A stretch of 64,000 nt of DNA, from the IMG/VR virus record IMGVR_UViG_3300042890_002721, positions 1-64,000 of that record; one strand, 5' to 3'. Shown here piece by piece: positions 2,666 to 53,989 of this stretch; position 1 is the stretch's first letter; every line of letters begins with the position of its first letter. The notes under the pieces are model-generated. The model ran no database searches. It had not been told where the DNA came from and was given only the letters and a program-made list of their open reading frames with translations. Both the position numbers and the translations under genes were made by a program. This DNA is from a virus.

Positions 2666-2980
2666 TTAGTTTTGTTCACTAGGTTCGTCTGGTGTTTCTT
2701 CAATCGTAGGTTCTTGTTTTGGTGGTATTTCTTTTGAGTTTTTGTTTTTAATCGCATGATAAGTTGTCATACCAAATAATGCAGCTATAAAACTATAATC
2801 AATTGTTAAAACCATTTCTAATTGTGTTAGATTACCTAGTGTTAACCATTTTACATGAATAATAACAACCAAAAGGACAATAATAAAAGCTACTATTTTT
2901 CTAGTACTAAAACCACCTTCTTTTATATCTAAACTTTTAATTAGATTATCTGTAATTTTATCTTTTAATTCTTGTTTCAT
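2666..2980 (-). CDS. two-TM membrane protein, holin-like
   Basis: FSTRK followed by two hydrophobic helices and a charged tail; likely start MKQELK. Confidence 0.55.
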   Translation of the reverse strand: MKQELKDKITDNLIKSLDIKEGGFSTRKIVAFIIVLLVVIIHVKWLTLGNLTQLEMVLTIDYSFIAALFGMTTYHAIKNKNSKEIPPKQEPTIEETPDEPSEQN

Positions 2981-3032
2981 AATATATTGTTTTATAATAA
3001 ATATCCACAAAAAAATTTTATTATAAAACAAC

Positions 3033-3063
3033 AAAACCCCAACAAAGCGACTTGTTGAGGTTT
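3033..3063 (-). terminator. terminator after tmRNA
   Basis: AAACCTCAACAA-GTCGCT-TTGTTGGGGTTTT. Confidence 0.65.
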
Positions 3064-3157
3064 AAAATTTCTTACTCAAAGGCGATACGTGAGCAGAATC
3101 ATATAGATTATTTGTTTTTATACTATCACTAAAAACCGAAAAGCACAAAAAACGGTC

Positions 3158-3527
3158 TGGTGGAGATGGGGGGAATCGAACCCCCGTGTTGAATATTCTT
3201 CAAAAGCCTTCTACATGTTTAGGTCATGATTTGCAAAACCATCCGAAACTTTACTACCTCTTTTTACCGTGTAATTTAAGCTTCACACCAGATGGATTAC
3301 CATTATCTTGGTGGATTACCACCATCGGTAGGTTACTACCATTAGCAATTATTAGGCAACTGCAACCTCTCCTCCAATTACAGACATGCTGCATTCGTCA
3401 AGGAAATTTTCTGATACGATGAAATCGTTGTCAATTCAATTGTTTAATAGACAGATTTAAGTGCTTCCAATCTAGCACTACATGCTTACCAATTACGACT
3501 ATAATCAGTCAATACCTTGGCATCCCC
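3158..3527 (-). ncRNA. ssrA: tmRNA
   Basis: 5' GGGGATG...GGTATTGAC, 3' GGGGGTTCGATTCCCCC-CATCTCC-ACCA with G3.U70; internal tag ORF ending TAATAA. Confidence 0.92.
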
Positions 3528-3792
3528 ATAAAATTAAAGAACGTGTTTTATAAATATGTGGGTTCTTACTAGAAAAACCCACTATCTATATTTCTCTCTA
3601 CAAAGTTACAACATTTATAAACAAAATGCAAGTAAAATCGTATTTATTTTTCAATTAATTCAAAAATAACTTTATATAACTCATTAACTGCTGTTTCATC
3701 ACCATCAATAAAGTCATATTCAACATCATAATTATTCAATAGAGTTTTAATGTCTTTGTCTTTTACTTTTTGTCCTTCTAAGGTATCAGCCA

Positions 3793-17037: not shown

Positions 17038-17072
17038 AATTATTATTGTTTAGTTATAAATATCTTTTAAAT

Positions 17073-17121: not shown

Positions 17122-18975
17122 TTATTCTTCTTCGTCTTCTTCTTGTGATTCTTTAACCACACCTTCTTCTTCTTCTTCAGATTCTTCTTCAGATTCTTCT
17201 TCCATATAAGATTCGTTGATTGGTTCAAATCTAACACCACCTAACGTAATACCTTCAGTTATTGCTTCTTCTTTAGCAACAGTTTCTTGGTTAGCTGTAG
17301 ATTCTTTACCCATATGGATATGTTTCTTAGCTTCAGCAGCATGAGGTACATTTATATCTTCCCAATGACCAGCTTTAGCTTTTTTACCTTCAATGTTTTC
17401 ACCTTCAGTTTTAACTTTAGTAGTTTCTTCAACTTCTTCAGTTGTTACATCTTCAACACCTTCTTCTTCCTCTTCTTCTTCTTCTTGGTTAAAAGATTCT
17501 TTCATTGTTACGTGTTTAGTTGCATCAGCAGATTTTTTCTTAACATTTTCCCATTCACCTTTTTTAGGTGCTGGTGCTTTTGTACCTTTTTCAGTTGATA
17601 CAGAACCTTCTACATGAGCTTTAGCTTCAGCAGCGTGAGATACAGCATCATCTAAATCACCTTCTTTTGCAGCTGGTGCTTGAGTTCCTTTATCTTTAGA
17701 TACAGAACCTTCTACATGTTTAGTAGCTTCTGGTGCTTTTTTAGTTATACCATCCCATTCACCAGTTTTAGCTTTTGCGTTTTCAATATCTTCACCTTCT
17801 AACAACATTTTTGATTTGCTATAGATATCACCAAAAACAGCGTTTTCATTGATTCTAGCATTACCTTTTAAAAGACCAAGAGTTTCAGTTGATTTATAAC
17901 CCATAAGGTGTTTCATGTGAGCCATATCTTCAGATACCATTTTCTTATCAGATGCCATAAGTACAACAGCTCTACCTTCAGTTAAGTTACCTTCCCAACG
18001 GATTTTATAAGTTTCATTACCATCTGTCATTTCGAATTGTTTATTATCTACTCTGTAAGATTCTGGTATCATTTTAAGTGCATTTCCAACACCGTTAAAC
18101 TCTTTTTTAAATTTAAGTCTTTTCATTCCTTCTTTTATTTGTATTTTGTTGTTATCATTATTTTCGAACATACCACCTTTCATAGCTTTTTTATCTAACT
18201 TGGTAGCTGATTTTTTAGCAGTTTGCATTGCTAAAGTAAATTGTTTTTTATTTAATAAAGAAATTATCTTATTAATAGCATTACCATATTCCATACTATC
18301 TGGCATATCAGATAACATACCAGTTTCACTGTATCTATTTAATAATTTTTCAGCTACTTTATCAACACCAGTTTCAGCTATCCAACCACTTATGATTCTA
18401 GCGTTTTTTTCTTCTGGAGTTTCAATATTCTCATCTAAAGCATAAGGTCTATGACCAGTATCCTTTAAATCAGCTTGGATGTCTCTACCTCTAAGGTTAA
18501 GTGTTGGAGTTTGATTATTTCTTTTTTCAGTTGATGCTTTAACTCGTTTAACCAAATTTTTACCAAAGTCTGGACCAGTAAACCCTTGTTGTTTAGGTAT
18601 TACATTAGCCCATTCTGGGTTATTACCCATTCTAGTACTACCTTCGATTGCCTCTTCAGCTCTCTTTTTAAAGTTATCATCTGGTTTACTGTCATATTGA
18701 AGCATTTCTTGACCATTCATGATTTCCATTTCTTCATGATATGTTTTCTCAAAATCATCATCATAATTAAATTTGTTCTGAGCCATTTCTTGTTCATTTT
18801 TGTCAGCTTTAACATTTTTCTCAAATGCTGTGACATCTTTCTCAATAGCTTTAACACCGTCTTTGTTAAATTTACCAGATTCTTTATTGACAGCAGCTGT
18901 TACCGAAATTCCAGGTACTGTTTCCTCTGTGATAAATTTACTATTTAAGTGTTTTTTTATTATGTTTTTATCCAT
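17122..18975 (-). CDS. acidic repeat-containing protein, head-internal/scaffold candidate
   Basis: 617 aa; GxW...A(E/D)AxxHV repeats; poly-E; late motif upstream. Confidence 0.8.
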   Translation of the reverse strand: MDKNIIKKHLNSKFITEETVPGISVTAAVNKESGKFNKDGVKAIEKDVTAFEKNVKADKNEQEMAQNKFNYDDDFEKTYHEEMEIMNGQEMLQYDSKPDDNFKKRAEEAIEGSTRMGNNPEWANVIPKQQGFTGPDFGKNLVKRVKASTEKRNNQTPTLNLRGRDIQADLKDTGHRPYALDENIETPEEKNARIISGWIAETGVDKVAEKLLNRYSETGMLSDMPDSMEYGNAINKIISLLNKKQFTLAMQTAKKSATKLDKKAMKGGMFENNDNNKIQIKEGMKRLKFKKEFNGVGNALKMIPESYRVDNKQFEMTDGNETYKIRWEGNLTEGRAVVLMASDKKMVSEDMAHMKHLMGYKSTETLGLLKGNARINENAVFGDIYSKSKMLLEGEDIENAKAKTGEWDGITKKAPEATKHVEGSVSKDKGTQAPAAKEGDLDDAVSHAAEAKAHVEGSVSTEKGTKAPAPKKGEWENVKKKSADATKHVTMKESFNQEEEEEEEEGVEDVTTEEVEETTKVKTEGENIEGKKAKAGHWEDINVPHAAEAKKHIHMGKESTANQETVAKEEAITEGITLGGVRFEPINESYMEEESEEESEEEEEGVVKESQEEDEEE

Positions 18976-19020
18976 TATTAGTATGTTTTAATATAAATAT
19001 CTAACTTTTTACTAAAGTTA

Positions 19021-25122: not shown

Positions 25123-25145
25123 TGTATATATTTTAATTATAAATA

Positions 25146-32112: not shown

Positions 32113-33279
32113 ATGGTAAATAGTAATATGAAAAATTTTATAAAACAAAAATTAAACGAAGCGTTATTGAAAGAGAAATTAATGCTTAAAGATTGGGATT
32201 TATATATTCAATTGGTAGCTAAGGCTTATGCTGAAGCACCAGACTTCGATGCTAGTGTTGTAAACGCTTGGAATGCTCTTAATCAATCTAATTATACATT
32301 ATTTAATAGAATCTTATCAAAGGTTAATTTAATCTTCATAACTTCAGATAAGAATAAAGTTGGTTCTATTGAAATAAATGGTAAACTTTATAAAGTTAAA
32401 TTAGCAGAACTTGGTGATGAGTATAATACTCAAAGTGAGATGAAAAATTCATTCAATGAAACTGGTATACTTAAAATTAGTATGGATTATTCTGAACACC
32501 CTATATTAAGTGTTAAAGATAATATTGTATTTAGAAGTGTTCATGATTACATTGCTCATATATTAGGTAATCATGATTTTGGTGCTAAGGGTGAAATAGC
32601 TTGTTATAATTTACACGCTAAAATGGCACCTAATGCAGCAATACCAGCGTTGTTTACTGAAGTGGTTGGACAAGCATCAACAACAATAGTAACTAATTCT
32701 TACCCTAAACAAAAAATAGCTATATTAAAAGGTTTTGATTACACAAGGGTAGGTCTAATTGATGATGATAATTATGTGATTGTTGATAAGGTTTTAGTTC
32801 CTAAATCACAAGCTGAAAATCCAATTATAAGTAAACCAATCGATAGAACTGAACCAAGTGTTGTTCCACAAAAACAAGAATTTGAAGAACCTTCATTAAC
32901 TGAGTATTATGATGATTTTGATTATGATGATATGGATTTTTTTGAACCAAAGAAAGCTAAGAAATCCGATAAGGTTACTTTTATGGCTAAATTACCAGAT
33001 GTGATTAGATTATACAGAATACTTGTTGCTGATTCAATAGAAGATATCGATACAACATTCTTAGGTTATCATTATTCAATGGATAAAAATAATCTATTAA
33101 GAACACACAGCTTTTTAAAAGGTAAAAAATACTTCTTGGCGACTGTAGATGCTAAAAAATCTTTGGTGGATATAAAAACTACTATGGATAATAATGCATT
33201 ATATCCTAATGAAAAAGAAATAACCCTTAAAAATAAAGGTAGAGGTGTTGATGTTATATCTATTGAACCGTTGAATTAA
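32113..33279 (+). CDS. late two-domain protein; C-terminal ADP-ribosyltransferase-like domain
   Basis: GTATTTAT upstream; N-term MKNFIKQKLNE; C-term LYR...HYS...NEKEI. Confidence 0.7.
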   Translation: MVNSNMKNFIKQKLNEALLKEKLMLKDWDLYIQLVAKAYAEAPDFDASVVNAWNALNQSNYTLFNRILSKVNLIFITSDKNKVGSIEINGKLYKVKLAELGDEYNTQSEMKNSFNETGILKISMDYSEHPILSVKDNIVFRSVHDYIAHILGNHDFGAKGEIACYNLHAKMAPNAAIPALFTEVVGQASTTIVTNSYPKQKIAILKGFDYTRVGLIDDDNYVIVDKVLVPKSQAENPIISKPIDRTEPSVVPQKQEFEEPSLTEYYDDFDYDDMDFFEPKKAKKSDKVTFMAKLPDVIRLYRILVADSIEDIDTTFLGYHYSMDKNNLLRTHSFLKGKKYFLATVDAKKSLVDIKTTMDNNALYPNEKEITLKNKGRGVDVISIEPLN

Positions 33280-33380
33280 CTATATTCATTATAATTTAAT
33301 TTTCTGGATGTTCTAAGTAAAGCAACTACACCCTTAGACCCATATTGTTCAAACAATTTAGATGGGTCATAACCTTCTGG
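33276..33380 (-). pseudogene. displaced original 3' end of primase gene
   Basis: Encodes PEGYDPSKLFEQYGSKGVVALLRTSRKLNYNEYS*, vs PEGYDVSLINQVYGSKGVIKLLRTTRKLKYDELN* in the intact gene. Confidence 0.9.
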
Positions 33381-33423
33381 TGACTTTTAAGTAAATTATA
33401 TGTATTTATATTAAAACATATAA

Positions 33424-33993
33424 ATGCCTTATAAGAACCCAGAAGATAAAAAAGCACATAACAAAAAACGTTATGAAAATAATAAAGAAAAATTAATTTT
33501 ACAAAATAAAGAAAATAAAAATAAAAAAATTAATAATAAAAAATATCGAGATAAAAATAAAGAAAAAATTAATGAAAACCAAAAAATATACGCATTAAAT
33601 AATAAAGAGAAAATTAATACATATAAAAGAGAATACGAAAAAAATAGAATGGAGATTGACCCATTATTTAAAATGATTAAAAACATTAGAAACTTAATTG
33701 GTGTTTCAATAAAAAGACAAGGGTTCGATAAAAACTCAAAAACTATTACCATACTTGGTTGCTCATTTAATGAATTCAAGTCATATCTAGAATCAAAGTT
33801 TGAAACATGGATGGATTGGGGTAATAAAGGTAAATATAATGGTGAATTAAACCATGGTTGGGATATAGACCATATTATACCAATATCTTCAGCTATAACT
33901 GAAGAAGATGTGATTAGATTGAATCACTATACGAATCTTCAACCATTGTGTAGTAAAATAAATAGAGATATTAAAAAGGATAACTTAATTTAA
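33424..33993 (+). CDS. HNH-type homing endonuclease
   Basis: Basic repeats, LGCS...YLESKF...WDIDHIIP...NHYTNLQPLCSKIN. Confidence 0.88.
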   Translation: MPYKNPEDKKAHNKKRYENNKEKLILQNKENKNKKINNKKYRDKNKEKINENQKIYALNNKEKINTYKREYEKNRMEIDPLFKMIKNIRNLIGVSIKRQGFDKNSKTITILGCSFNEFKSYLESKFETWMDWGNKGKYNGELNHGWDIDHIIPISSAITEEDVIRLNHYTNLQPLCSKINRDIKKDNLI

Positions 33994-34941
33994 CTCATCA
34001 TATTTTAACTTTCTTGTTGTTCTAAGCAATTTAATAACACCTTTTGACCCATATACTTGATTTATTAAACTAACATCATACCCTTCTGGTGGGATACATA
34101 TTCTAATTCTATCGTATAAATCACCAAAATTTAATTGTTTGTATAAGTGTATCGCATCTTTTAGTGCATCATCATCTAATAACACCACAATATTAGATGA
34201 TGATTTATCATAAATCATTTCTAACAAGATTGGTGATATGTATTTACCTAACATTGGTATTGAATTCGGTACTACTATATGGTCAGTAACACCTTCAACA
34301 AGATATATTGTAGCATCCCAATTAATTTTAGACTCATTGAAAATTATTTCTTGTTTTTCAACATCTGGATTTAAATATTTTAATTTGGTTTTCTCTTTTG
34401 CAAACCATCTAGCGATAAAATAATTTAATTTACCTTCACTATCATAAGATGGGATAATAATTCTATTAAAATGTTTACCCTTGATAGTATAACCTATATC
34501 AAATTCTTTGATTATATCATCTGTAATACCACGTTCTCTTAGATATGTCATGGCCATATCATACTTAAAATTTTTGGATGTGGATTCGGATAACTTTTTA
34601 TAACTTTCTGGTAATTCAACAATAACTTCTTTACGTTCTTTACCAACCATGGTGTCAGCATCTGGTTTTAATAGTAAGTAATCACGTAAATTTTTTTGTG
34701 AACCGTATTTTTTGATTAGTTTGGTAACTGGCCCTTGCATGTTGTTTACCTCACCACAAGACCAACAGTGAAAAACACTTCTATTATAGTTTATTTCTAA
34801 GTTACCTTTACCATCACCTTCGAACATATTTTTCTCATACGAACACGCTGGACAATCAAAAGAGATTTGTCCAGTATCTTCATTGTGTTTTCTGTTTTCA
34901 CCTAGAAAACCTTCGAGTATATCTACTAATAATACTGACAT
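33985..34941 (-). CDS. DNA primase
   Basis: CPAC...HCWSC zinc domain, YLRERGI, RIIIP, KYLNP, LVEGVTD, LDDDA TOPRIM. Confidence 0.9.
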   Translation of the reverse strand: MSVLLVDILEGFLGENRKHNEDTGQISFDCPACSYEKNMFEGDGKGNLEINYNRSVFHCWSCGEVNNMQGPVTKLIKKYGSQKNLRDYLLLKPDADTMVGKERKEVIVELPESYKKLSESTSKNFKYDMAMTYLRERGITDDIIKEFDIGYTIKGKHFNRIIIPSYDSEGKLNYFIARWFAKEKTKLKYLNPDVEKQEIIFNESKINWDATIYLVEGVTDHIVVPNSIPMLGKYISPILLEMIYDKSSSNIVVLLDDDALKDAIHLYKQLNFGDLYDRIRICIPPEGYDVSLINQVYGSKGVIKLLRTTRKLKYDELN

Positions 34942-34983
34942 ACCGCAAAATTACTAATTTATTATTGATTTTACAACTTTTTA

Positions 34984-35235
34984 TTAGAATTTTTTTAAAA
35001 TAAAAGATTTAACCAATAAATTTATGGTTGTACGTTTGTCTGAATAATACTTTGAATTATTGGTTGCAATGTATTTCTTTCTAACCATATCAAAAATATC
35101 TAGTATTGTTTGATTCCTTAATTCTAATGTGTAATTTAACTCAAAATATGTAATGTGAAAATCAACAACTGATTTGACAATAATCAAATCTTCATCAATT
35201 GTATTATCAATTAATTTATTTGTTTCACTTTCCAT
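34984..35235 (-). CDS. hypothetical protein
   Basis: ORF in operon. Confidence 0.6.
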   Translation of the reverse strand: MESETNKLIDNTIDEDLIIVKSVVDFHITYFELNYTLELRNQTILDIFDMVRKKYIATNNSKYYSDKRTTINLLVKSFILKKF

Positions 35236-35870
35236 AACTCATTTTTTTGCATATATCCAATACCAGCTACATACGCATCAGAAGTATCAAATGTTTCTTT
35301 TTTGAGTTTGTTTTTCTTATCGTAAAACCAAGCTACTTGTGGTTCTAATTCAGCAACCTTTTCCCATAACACATATTTCTTATCAACATCAAAAGAATAA
35401 TCACCAAATAATACTGGTGTATTTTTAGCAATGACTTTTTCAGTTAATGGTGTACCATCTTTTTTAAATTTTCTAATTGCCATTAATTCTGGGAATGCAT
35501 ATTTACGTGCATCATATGATGAAATAAAATCTGGAACAACACCAACTGTATCGTAAACAGATTTTGATATCATACCATTAAAACGTAAAAGAGTTGCAAT
35601 AGTATACACATTATTTGATTGTAATAATGGTTCTTCAATAACAACTTTAGTAATACCAAAGTCACTATAATTAGCTAAAAATTCTTGTTCAAATATTTCA
35701 ACCTTACGGAACAATTCTTCCATCTTACTTTGTGGTTGTGGTTTAACTTTTGGTGATACATGGTGTAATAATTTTAATTCACCATGGTCACCCATATCTT
35801 GGAATAACGCAATACCTATGCAACTTGTTGACACATCCAATGCTAATAAAAATTCTGGTTCTTTTGACAT
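35211..35870 (-). CDS. RuvC-like Holliday junction resolvase
   Basis: LALDVSTSCIG, VVIEEP, FDTSDAY. Confidence 0.8.
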   Translation of the reverse strand: MSKEPEFLLALDVSTSCIGIALFQDMGDHGELKLLHHVSPKVKPQPQSKMEELFRKVEIFEQEFLANYSDFGITKVVIEEPLLQSNNVYTIATLLRFNGMISKSVYDTVGVVPDFISSYDARKYAFPELMAIRKFKKDGTPLTEKVIAKNTPVLFGDYSFDVDKKYVLWEKVAELEPQVAWFYDKKNKLKKETFDTSDAYVAGIGYMQKNELWKVKQIN

Positions 35871-37135: not shown

Positions 37136-39283
37136 TTAAAAATCCATACTAAGTTCAATTGTTATTGTGTTTGATGCAAGAGTGATTGGTGTACTTACTT
37201 TACCAACACATACTAGATTTTTATCAGTATCATAAATACCAACTTCACTAATCTTAATATTAGGTGGGTTAGTTGACATATCTTTACTTCTAGTTGGATT
37301 TGTAGTAGAGTTAAATGTTGATGAATTTACATTTACATTAAAAATTGTTTTATATATTGTAGCACCAATGTATGTATTTAAGTTTCCATAAAATAATCTT
37401 TCATCACCAAATTGTAATGCATCTGGTGTCATATTAGCAGCTAAATTTAATAAACTGATAAGGTCAAAAGTAGTTGATGTCGCACCATTTATCATGTCTA
37501 AAACAAAACCAGTTGTTGATGGTACTTGACCTTCAAGTAATTTAGGGTCAATAGTTTCACCAGAAACACCAGTAATAGCTGTTGAGGTTAAATCAACTTG
37601 TTTCCATGAACCAGCATCTGGTCTAGTTGTTGAGTCTGGAATTATTTGGTATAATAATTTAAATTTCTTAGCGTAAAAACCGTAACCATCATATGTAGCC
37701 GATTCATATTTACGCATAAATGGTAATAAATCAGTTGAATTGATTTTAAATGCTACATCCTTAGCAGTATTTGATTCGTTTGTTAATTTTACATATTTCT
37801 GACAAGGCATACTAGAAGTTAAACCAGTTCCTATTTCATTTTCAAGGCTATAAGTTAAATAGATTGTACTGTTTATAGGTAAAATACCAGTAGAAGTACC
37901 ACCAGAAGGTGAAGAAATCGTTGCAGATAATTCTGGAAGTGTCCAATTTCTATTTGATTTGTAAGATGTAGCAGCCACTATCTCATCATCGTGTAAAACA
38001 ATAGTTTTTAATTGTGGATATACTCTACCAACAACCATTGGTGTTGCTGAATTTGAAAGATATGAAGAATCCTCATATAAATCCATGTATTCAATATCAC
38101 TAGTACCAATATATTGTGTCAGACCACTCGCTGTAAATTTCATACCCATTGTAGTACCACTTTCAGTTGCGTAAGCACTTCTATGATACATAAGGTCTGG
38201 CATAACAATACTAACCGTTTTACCATTTTGTGTATCTACATAGAAAAATTCACCATATAGGTTAGAAATAGTGTTATTAGTATAATGAATGATTGACACT
38301 GATTTACTAATATCATCTGGATAACTAATCCCAGGTCCATTACAACTAAAAGATAATGTGGTAGCAGTGCTTTGACATAAATATTCTAAGTATGGGTTTT
38401 TCTCACCCAAATAAGTATAAGAACCAAATTTAGTGTAATTTTCATACAATTTAGTTTTTGTTAAACCAGTTACACCAGCTAAATCTTCACACCAAACATT
38501 ATTCATATTCCAAACTGGTACATCATGACATGTAATGTTTGAAGCTGAATCGAATGAAAGTGTTCCAGAATCCCAATATGCAGTTGTGTTTCCAGTAGCT
38601 ATCGTATCATATACTTCACCACCTCTATAAACAAATACTTGTGAATTACCAGTGAAACTAGAATAATTAGGTAAATTTCTATCGATAGTAATGTTATACA
38701 TATCAATAATATCTTGTATTTTAAACCATAGATTTGGTAACGGTCTAGTATTCTCATCTGGTATTATAGTTCCAGAATAATCATTAGCTACCTTAATCAA
38801 AACTATATCACCAATTGTAAATGCCGATGTTGGTCCAATATTTAAATTTGTTGTTCCATCTAATATTAAATTACTTATTAAATTAGTGAAAGCAACATAA
38901 GTTTCAGTAGATTTTGTTGTATAATTACCACCAGAATAAGTAAAAAAACCTCTTTCTTCAGCTTGATTATTTACAACAGCTTTTATAACATTTAAGTTAG
39001 TGTTAGTTAAATCTTGATAAGGTGTTGCTGCATTACTTGGAGTAATATACGATTTAAAATTTGGTTGTCTATCTAATGGTCTTAGTATTTTACTAGTTTC
39101 ACTAAGTGTAGTATCACCAACATTAATTGCTGCATCTACGATAGCTTCTCTATTATAATTAAGTTCAGAATCACCGATAGCCCAATATGTAAAATTAAGT
39201 TTTCCTTGTGCTAACATTTCACGCCCAGTCTGAGTTAATTTAATACTAACAAATGGATTTGTATTTTTTATTATATATGACAT
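37136..39283 (-). CDS. virion structural (baseplate/tail) protein
   Basis: KLTQTGR...WAIGDSE N-term; ISEVGIYD...LVCVGK C-term. Confidence 0.75.
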   Translation of the reverse strand: MSYIIKNTNPFVSIKLTQTGREMLAQGKLNFTYWAIGDSELNYNREAIVDAAINVGDTTLSETSKILRPLDRQPNFKSYITPSNAATPYQDLTNTNLNVIKAVVNNQAEERGFFTYSGGNYTTKSTETYVAFTNLISNLILDGTTNLNIGPTSAFTIGDIVLIKVANDYSGTIIPDENTRPLPNLWFKIQDIIDMYNITIDRNLPNYSSFTGNSQVFVYRGGEVYDTIATGNTTAYWDSGTLSFDSASNITCHDVPVWNMNNVWCEDLAGVTGLTKTKLYENYTKFGSYTYLGEKNPYLEYLCQSTATTLSFSCNGPGISYPDDISKSVSIIHYTNNTISNLYGEFFYVDTQNGKTVSIVMPDLMYHRSAYATESGTTMGMKFTASGLTQYIGTSDIEYMDLYEDSSYLSNSATPMVVGRVYPQLKTIVLHDDEIVAATSYKSNRNWTLPELSATISSPSGGTSTGILPINSTIYLTYSLENEIGTGLTSSMPCQKYVKLTNESNTAKDVAFKINSTDLLPFMRKYESATYDGYGFYAKKFKLLYQIIPDSTTRPDAGSWKQVDLTSTAITGVSGETIDPKLLEGQVPSTTGFVLDMINGATSTTFDLISLLNLAANMTPDALQFGDERLFYGNLNTYIGATIYKTIFNVNVNSSTFNSTTNPTRSKDMSTNPPNIKISEVGIYDTDKNLVCVGKVSTPITLASNTITIELSMDF

Positions 39284-40158
39284 AAGTTTTCTTTTAATTT
39301 ATTTTTTATTTTTTCTTTATATGAAATTCTAATTAATTTTATCTTATTTTCAAGACAAAACTTATTTTTTATATTATCTTTTTTTTCTTGGTCAATTAAA
39401 CCATTAACACCACCCCATCTATCAATTATTTCAAAATGTTGTCTACCATCATATTCAATACATATATCCAACTCTGGGAGGTAAAAATCAAATGGTAATG
39501 GGTATTTATCCCTACAACCACTAAAAACATATTGTTGTATGTGTTTAATTTTATAATCTTCTAAAATAACCCTTATCTCACGCTCACCTTTTGATTCTTT
39601 ACATAATAAACAACCATGACCTTTAATATGTTTATCTGAAGATTGTTCAAATTCACCATGGATAGGACAAATTATTTTTATCTTTTTAAACGAACCTTTA
39701 TAATTCACTAATGAATAATCATATTTATTACCGTGTTTTTCTTTAACTTTATTAATATATTCTTCACTGTTTAATTGTCTACCAGAACACTTTAAACAAC
39801 CATGACCCTTTAAATGACTATTTGGTTCTTGTTCAAACGTGCCATGAACTGAGCATATTATTTTAACTTTTGTTTTATTATTTTTGTAGTCAACTAAAGA
39901 ATAATCGTATTTGTTGTTATGTAAATTAACTGATTCTTTTATAAAAGATTCGGTTGTTTTATTAACACCAGAACACTTTAAACAACCATAACCCCTTAAA
40001 TGACTATTTGGTTCTTGTTCAAATATATCGTGAGTTGGACATGTTATTTTTATTTTTGTTTTATTATTTTTGTAGTCAACTAAAGAATAATCGTATTTGT
40101 TGTTATGAATTAATTTTGCTTTTTCAATAAACGTTTCATTTGTTAATTTTTTACTCAT
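39271..40158 (-). CDS. homing endonuclease: repeated HxxKYDYS/CxxH...CxxC modules + PD-(D/E)XK (Vsr/DUF559-like) domain
   Basis: Three repeats; ESKGE...LPFDFYLP...IEYDGRQH; own start MSKKLT at 40158, in frame with upstream remnant. Confidence 0.85.
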   Translation of the reverse strand: MSKKLTNETFIEKAKLIHNNKYDYSLVDYKNNKTKIKITCPTHDIFEQEPNSHLRGYGCLKCSGVNKTTESFIKESVNLHNNKYDYSLVDYKNNKTKVKIICSVHGTFEQEPNSHLKGHGCLKCSGRQLNSEEYINKVKEKHGNKYDYSLVNYKGSFKKIKIICPIHGEFEQSSDKHIKGHGCLLCKESKGEREIRVILEDYKIKHIQQYVFSGCRDKYPLPFDFYLPELDICIEYDGRQHFEIIDRWGGVNGLIDQEKKDNIKNKFCLENKIKLIRISYKEKIKNKLKENLCHI

Positions 40159-40196
40159 ATTTTTATTTACTAATAAATATACACGAAACCAGAAAA

Positions 40197-40272
40197 GTGC
40201 TAATTGTTCACGACCTTTCTCCGTTAATTTAATACTAACGAATGGATTTGTATTTTTTATAATGTAACTCAT
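40197..40272 (-). pseudogene. displaced original 5' end of gene 37136..39283
   Basis: MSYIIKNTNPFVSIKLTEKGREQLA vs MSYIIKNTNPFVSIKLTQTGREMLA. Confidence 0.92.
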
Positions 40273-53945: not shown

Positions 53946-53989
53946 TTATATTTCTTTTTATTATAAATATAACAAACATTAAAAATTTC

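Follow-up and report, generated by a model that had tools for sequence, protein, structure and literature searches.

The closest described systems are found in fungal mitochondria, where mobile endonuclease open reading frames (mORFs) make 'gene hybrids' of atp6, atp9, cox2 and nad3 in Glomus sp., atp6 of Allomyces macrogynus being cited as a further example (PMC3630166, available passages). For Glomus atp6, the inserted copy shows 63.5% and the native copy 91.2% DNA identity to near relatives (PMC3630166). Partial C-terminal duplications next to endonuclease open reading frames (ORFs) are also described in the accessible part of PMC6279837. Here, we describe an arrangement of this kind in a bacteriophage. 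The stretch analysed, referred to throughout as the window, comprises the first 64 kb (positions 1 to 64,000) of the 72.6-kb virus record IMGVR_UViG_3300042890_002721 from IMG/VR (CheckV completeness about 21%). In the window, a DNA primase gene is interrupted by a 709-nt cassette that holds a gene for an HNH-type nuclease and a substitute 3' end for the primase. The features of the locus are as follows.

33985..34941, minus strand: primase gene as now read (318 aa; ORF), native body plus replacement tail, ending in PPEGYDVSLINQVYGSKGVIKLLRTTRKLKYDELN and a stop.
34082..34941, minus strand: native primase body, common to the empty-site allele (0 differences in the contig from metagenome run X3; 96.9% identical to the closest homologue, P0001).
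33276..33372, minus strand: stranded native 3' end of the primase (the remnant), used as the gene end in the empty-site allele (translation; X3 contig).
33373..34081, no strand assigned: 709-nt putative mobile cassette consisting of leader, HNH gene and replacement primase 3' end (omitted in the X3 and X7 contigs; boundaries slide by at most 10 nt).
33373..33423, plus strand: 51-nt HNH leader with the upstream motif TATTTATA at 33403-33410 (motif enrichment).
33424..33993, plus strand: HNH-type (His-Me finger) nuclease gene, 189 aa, intact ORF (family profiles, invariant residues).
33985..34081, minus strand: replacement primase 3' end, in frame with the body (YDVSLINQVYGSKGVIKLLRTTRKLKYDELN followed by a stop; ORF, alignment to the native end).
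33373..33382, second copy at 34082-34091, no strand assigned: 10-nt direct repeat CCTTCTGGTG (on the minus strand CACCAGAAGG, the P-E-G codons), given by the letters that fit either side of the joint.
32113..33279, plus strand: convergent gene, 388 aa, unknown function (ORF; phrog_3170, unknown function).

By analogy, the closest known analogue of the cassette is the fungal mitochondrial mORF with a foreign C-terminus. In both, as far as the available passages on mORFs go, an endonuclease gene is accompanied by a foreign in-frame C-terminus placed in the 3' part of the host gene, and the native C-terminus is kept downstream unused. As in Glomus, near relatives resemble the native copy closely and the inserted copy much less (about 99% and 69%, respectively, in the phage case). 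The mORF nuclease gene is described as following the host gene on the same strand, often in phase, whereas the phage HNH gene lies antisense to the primase, overlaps it by 9 nt and has its own leader. The phage case further differs in that the host is a bacteriophage and not an organelle, the nuclease is of the HNH type and not of the LAGLIDADG or GIY-YIG type, and the target is a DNA primase.

Among phages, intronless homing by a free-standing endonuclease of a T4-like phage was reportedly described by Belle et al. in 2002, and mobA together with the 50-nt bypass cassette is said to have been found mobile by Bonocora et al. in 2011. Intronless homing by the free-standing endonucleases SegF, SegG and MobE of T4-like phages is reviewed in PMC2988022, according to the accessible passages of which inheritance is by break repair with co-conversion of flanking markers, and carriers are immune through differences in the target. 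The HNH gene of the window is likewise free-standing; the genes for SegF, SegG and MobE are intergenic and recipient sequence is replaced, whereas the phage cassette lies in a reading frame and leaves the old end stranded. Those passages of the review mention no gene-end duplication beside T4-like free-standing endonucleases. They do give homing-endonuclease insertions that split genes (mobE in nrdA of Aeh1 and mobA in gene 39/60 of T4), the hosts of which are left in two reassembling pieces or with a 50-nt ribosome bypass, whereas the cassette-bearing primase is whole through its substitute end. No report of a phage endonuclease cassette with a replacement gene end was found in the searchable portions of openly accessible full texts (including PMC10448857, PMC2988022, PMC12724721 and PMC10892653), subscription journals aside.

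Logan contigs from four public lake or freshwater metagenome runs were aligned on 32500-35000; stretches without cover in runs X3, X7 and X8 were not counted as evidence. Run X3 comes from a study other than that of the two runs from which the window may derive, and X7 from a third study. The X3 contig (3353 nt) carries 32500-33372 with two differences (32721 and 33280) and 34082-35000 with none, and it joins 33372 straight to 34082, omitting exactly 709 nt (side 255; ten letters fit either side). The same 709-nt omission is present in the X7 contig (33374 joined to 34084, shorter side 45 nt), and the more diverged X8 contig omits 723 nt with 14 other letters in between. A contig of X7 also breaks off at 33382, precisely on the boundary, and the two forms may occur together in some of the lakes. 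The joint is not an assembly artefact, because a 10-nt repeat cannot collapse an assembly of 31-letter words. Carrier and empty allele therefore differ in the flanks by 0/919 and 2/873 bases, and the remnant differs from the X3 contig in a single base (33280). Joining the window stretches at 33372 and 34082 yields a frame that is open for 318 aa and has the remnant as its end. Thus, near-identical phages exist in which the remnant is the ordinary end of the primase, and the cassette is present or absent at one fixed site between otherwise near-identical phages. The share of sampled words present was 0.66 in X3 and 0.64-0.65 in runs X4-X6 of the same study. In run X1, the cassette allele is the only form at the site, at a contig depth of 24.8, and this allele is hence viable.

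The cassette consists of the leader, the HNH gene and the replacement primase end, inserted between the P-E-G and the Y-D-P-S codons of the primase (51-nt leader, 570-nt ORF and 97-nt tail, less 9 shared nt, make 709). The HNH gene is convergent with the primase, and the 9 nt that overlap the primase stop region are its last. The earlier note on this DNA, made from the sequence without database searches, had proposed that an antisense HNH cassette replaces the C-terminus of the primase; this describes the 709-nt block, which holds both the HNH gene and the working end, the latter foreign by the comparisons given below. On the far side of the block, the frame of the remnant (33276..33383, minus strand) reads stop, KSPEGYDPSKLFEQYGSKGVVALLRTSRKLNYNEYS, stop, with 36 open codons between the two stops. 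The working tail comprises 31 codons and is unlike the tails of the closest relatives; the remnant lies 709 nt downstream. The two ends have 60% protein identity (35 aa) and 69% DNA identity (108 nt), and a blastp comparison of flank against flank at the window locus gave E = 1.4e-11.

The stop codon of the remnant (33276-33278, minus strand) and that of the convergent gene (32113..33279, plus strand) share TTAA at 33276-33279, from which the note had taken the remnant to be the ancestral end. The coordinates were borne out and so was the reading, since contigs join the body to the remnant with the 709 nt omitted and the primase stop overlaps a convergent gene in relatives that lack the HNH gene too. 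For this comparison, 20 related primase loci were drawn from IMG/VR and JGI metagenomes, some being near-duplicates of one another. The overlap was seen in five of them (L085, L001, L003, L004 and L086); at L085, the closest locus with DNA (81% identical), it measures 4 nt, in the same geometry as at the remnant. The note had also asked whether relatives without the HNH gene carry both ends; a single D-P-S-type end with no second copy downstream was found in 20/20 loci. One apparent second tail, at L096 (E=0.006), was rejected as a chance match inside a helicase-like gene.

A search for primase homologues returned 2140 at E<=1e-20, the best 120 of which were used for residue counts. At the place where the working gene has D-V-S, D-P-S is found in 118 of these 120, with one D-A-S and one D-I-S (P0071), in agreement with the note's observation that the break falls at a conserved primase motif in which DP has become DV. 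When the tails are compared with that of P0001, the working tail matches in 19/30 positions and the remnant in 24/30. Four lines of evidence agree that the remnant, judged by these comparisons, is the original primase end.

The primase gene matched PF08275 (DNAG_N, E=1e-8, 35.7 bits, above the cut-off of 26), phrog_47 (DNA primase, E=8.9e-38) and, far below the equivalog cut-off, TIGR01391 (dnaG, E=2.5e-15, 56 bits); by family profile, it is a DnaG-type primase. Its P-x-G-x-D-P segment appears to resemble the final acidic motif in the TOPRIM domain of primases of the DnaG type. The primase is presumably essential, and a second one may lie elsewhere in the genome, of which the record covers about 21%.

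The junction follows nt 850-860 of the primase gene. Segments of 24 nt starting at nt 853-862 (codons P-E-G-Y-D-P-S-K) rank second in conservation along the gene (0.929, the best being 0.935; seven distinct sequences). Along the tail, DNA identity between the native and replacement versions is 15/16 at the junction, falls to 6/21 and then returns to 53/70; the 21-nt patch changes PSKLFEQ to VSLINQV. So abrupt and local a drop in identity next to the junction would be expected if the stretch were the recognition sequence of the nuclease, recoded to protect carriers.

The origin of the replacement tail was addressed by comparison with other primases. Its first 19 residues match the P0071 clade in 17/19 positions, with the primase body only 69% identical to P0071, and D[IV]SLIN occurs in 7/7 full-length members of the P0071 cluster; primases with this patch include P0071, P0242 and P0244. 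Its last 11-12 residues match P0001 and P0002 in 8-9/11 and P0071 in 4/12. A start that resembles P0071 and an end that resembles the clade of the window primase itself imply that the replacement tail is itself mosaic. On these resemblances, the working primase tail is foreign in origin. A search with primase residues 275-318 only listed P0071 and P0004 and no others. Scans of IMG/VR with back-translated G-Y-D-[VI]-S-L-I-N-Q patterns gave no match, and a scan of IMG/VR with P0071 as the query recovered only relatives that are 48-65% identical, all with DPS ends.

The HNH protein matched phrog_1035 ('endonuclease VII') with E=1.9e-6; no match was found in NCBIfam. Its family is very large, with 6218 members at E<=1e-10, among them the homologues P0122 (87%) and P0123 (80%); many members are encoded on contigs hundreds of kb long. 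In an alignment of 43 members, D147, D149, H150, P153, N171, N180, R181 and K184 are invariant, so that the catalytic motif D-x-D-H...N...N is present on the family alignment, and PF01844 was matched at E<=0.01 by 24 of the 43. The D-H...N...N pattern is presumably the signature of a His-Me finger nuclease. The N-terminal 100 residues form lysine-rich helical repeats in the AlphaFold model, where confidence is high.

Taken together, the locus is likely to be the product of a free-standing HNH homing-endonuclease cassette that rendered its own insertion harmless by bringing a substitute primase end. Homing would begin with the HNH protein cutting or nicking the uninterrupted site of a co-infecting phage; that it cuts at or beside the junction is the location we favour, with less assurance than the cassette itself. 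In the mixed infection, the cassette-bearing genome would serve as the repair template. Homology on the left would be given by the primase body and on the right by the last ~100 nt of the primase's own 3' end, later the remnant. The tail of the recipient would then become the remnant, which would explain the one-base difference between the remnant and the working tail of the empty allele. Carriers would be immune to cutting, the 21-nt patch being recoded and the site split by the insertion. With the gene's own end as the right arm, the element would need no homology in the downstream gene. The slot downstream of the primase is, by sequence comparison, variable among relatives: no similarity was detectable between the convergent gene of the window and the convergent genes of relatives (159-174 aa; E 0.44 and 0.66). 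As the downstream gene is not conserved, a cassette that uses primase sequence on both sides could enter more genomes than an intergenic one. We infer that the hybrid primase is active and that the genes concerned are expressed.

Several observations weigh against this account. The match of the HNH protein itself to PF01844 (E=0.0074, 16.8 bits) falls below the curated cut-off of 21.4 bits. The AlphaFold model has a mean pLDDT of 73.7, with values below 50 over the catalytic residues 143-177, and no fold comparison was made because the catalytic part is poorly modelled; searches of PDB sequences with the protein and with the 43-sequence profile returned no solved structure at E<=1. A layout with a duplicated gene end is not typical of the HNH family: from 58 loci with a tblastn match to the HNH protein, one with short flanks and the window (positive control) were set aside, and a duplication between the flanks within 800 nt was found in 1 of the remaining 56. 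Run X1 is not independent of the window, which may have come from it. The metagenome contigs would fit empty alleles that were never invaded and alleles that have lost the cassette precisely equally well. Finally, the IMG/VR scans yielded no genomic DNA in which the replacement end is native, and the P0071 clade is at most a candidate donor of the tail, its own tail differing in the last 12 residues (4/12).

The single locus with a flank duplication is L014, on a 321-kb phage contig (2420-3720), where a relative of the HNH gene (2857..3537, plus strand) is flanked on both sides by copies of codons 1-21 of a 269-aa gene. The copies have 81% amino-acid identity (E=5.6e-13), and the upstream one is cut off after codon 21. 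L014 looks like a mirror-image case, in which the 5' end of a gene was replaced; no relatives were found that would show which copy is native. In a more distant phage (L008, 1729-4285), an HNH gene of the same family (285 aa) is located between a RuvC-like gene and the primase, upstream of the latter and without duplication. The corresponding slot of the window is taken by ORF 34984..35235 (83 aa, unknown function).

The alternative that survives best, which we nevertheless consider unlikely, is that the recombination was not caused by the HNH protein. Illegitimate or homeologous recombination in a mixed infection would have produced the new primase end as a by-product of the crossover, and the nuclease would be inactive or serve in phage competition or DNA packaging. 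Cleavage by the HNH protein does rest on inference, the PF01844 match of this protein is weak, and the 55 HNH-relative loci out of 56 that show no such duplication speak in the same direction. In addition, homing-endonuclease genes and other inserts crowd the neighbourhood of the primase in relatives, as would be expected of a general recombination hot spot. On the other side, the insert is compact and exact (709 nt, a 9-nt gene overlap, frame kept and gene length unchanged), and its junction falls in a stretch of the gene that ranks among its most conserved. The 21 nt by the junction are recoded (6/21) in a tail that is otherwise 76% identical, the signature expected of a nuclease target, and the HNH ORF is intact with invariant catalytic residues.

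That the primase 3' end was tandemly duplicated on the spot in this phage, and that the copies diverged before an unrelated HNH gene landed between them, is a much poorer explanation and very improbable. Two copies of the gene end do flank the HNH gene on the same strand. However, with the flanks of the two alleles as close as stated above and the two ends differing at 31% of bases, there was no time for divergence in place. The working tail also has in common with a distant clade a rare patch (17/19 aa), and in the empty allele the HNH gene and the second end are missing jointly, in a single block of 709 nt.

Least credible of all is a self-splicing intron of 709 nt with an endonuclease gene, the remnant being the last exon of the mature primase mRNA: such an intron would account for an exact insert at a conserved position within an essential gene, as is seen with phage group I introns, and for a remnant that is intact and in frame with the body once the 709 nt are removed, yet an antisense ORF occupies 570 of the 709 nt, the element opens with an in-frame homologous full-length tail and stop for which an intron has no reason, and no Rfam family, intron models included, matched 32500-35500 at E<=1 apart from two chance-level matches to unrelated families (E 0.59 and 0.8). 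By covariance models, the ribozyme core of a group I intron was thus absent, and the HNH gene, on the strand opposite to the primase, is not embedded in an intron or an intein. The objection of the earlier note to an ordinary intron-encoded ORF, made from the antisense orientation, accordingly stands.

Expression signals were also analysed. TATTTATA is located 14 nt before the ATG of the HNH gene and is the most enriched 8-mer upstream of the phage genes, occurring in 11/63 upstream regions (0.83 expected). Of its copies, 22 are on the minus strand and 10 on the plus strand, about 14-30 nt before many start codons; examples from the 8-mer count are 33403-33410 (plus strand) and 18992-18999, 53962-53969, 25138-25145 and 17055-17062 (minus strand). 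The 24-mer at 33403-33426 recurs with 21/24 identity before the gene at 17122..18975 (0.01 expected). TATTTATA is probably a promoter element of this phage. A scan with the sigma-70 consensus gave 15 sites (18.6 expected), which is not above chance, and no plus-strand site before the HNH gene. The claim that the HNH gene has its own promoter motif therefore holds for the enriched 8-mer and fails for a sigma-70 site. No terminator was found in a scan of the locus. Among the public runs listed for this sequence, none was an RNA run. The HNH gene is co-oriented with the convergent gene and lies directly downstream of it, and read-through transcription from 32113..33279 (plus strand) into the HNH gene is hence possible.

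The two alleles constitute a base-exact natural before/after pair for the entry of a free-standing homing endonuclease into the coding frame of an essential phage gene, with neither an intron nor an intein nor a split gene involved. The target becomes testable as a stretch of 30-40 nt spanning the joint of the empty allele, with the 21-nt recoded patch as the candidate for immunity; so does the tolerance of the primase to the change from Pro, the prevailing residue in the homologues counted above, to Val. For annotation, stranded gene ends such as 33276..33372 are neither genes nor random spacer. For phage evolution, cassettes of this kind would carry protein termini across lineages with only about 69% identity, and a mechanism known from fungal mitochondria would be extended to viruses of bacteria. 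A broader suggestion, which we put forward tentatively and with some doubt, is that phages harbour a largely unrecognised class of homing cassettes that carry a recoded substitute for the gene end, use the displaced native end as the right arm and, with each homing event, swap C-termini of an essential replication protein between distant lineages, the mosaic tail being a trace of serial homing. If this were true, nucleases without introns could settle in the most conserved codons of essential genes, their spread would be independent of the variable neighbour gene, and the cassettes would be drivers of protein mosaicism beyond being passengers.

The surroundings of the primase seem to form a hot spot of selfish nuclease genes. 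At L003 (1962-2726), L084 (2462-3250) and L082 (2007-2759), the primase has next to it an ORF of about 250 aa, the N-terminus of which looks GIY-YIG-like in translation. An exonuclease gene that encodes 260-283 aa in the window and in other relatives encodes 617 aa at L004 (4423-6276) and L082 (4923-6776); the internal block of about 330 aa in the 617-aa exonucleases looks like an intein with a LAGLIDADG-type motif.

The window encodes a baseplate wedge protein, a prohead protease, an SbcC-like protein and NrdA, and the virus is therefore taken to be a large tailed phage; 43 of the 47 ORFs of at least 150 aa in the window are on the minus strand. A second, unrelated homing-endonuclease-like gene (39271-40272, minus strand, 333 aa) matched phrog_559 ('HNH endonuclease', E=1.6e-81) and is flanked by two large genes of unknown function.

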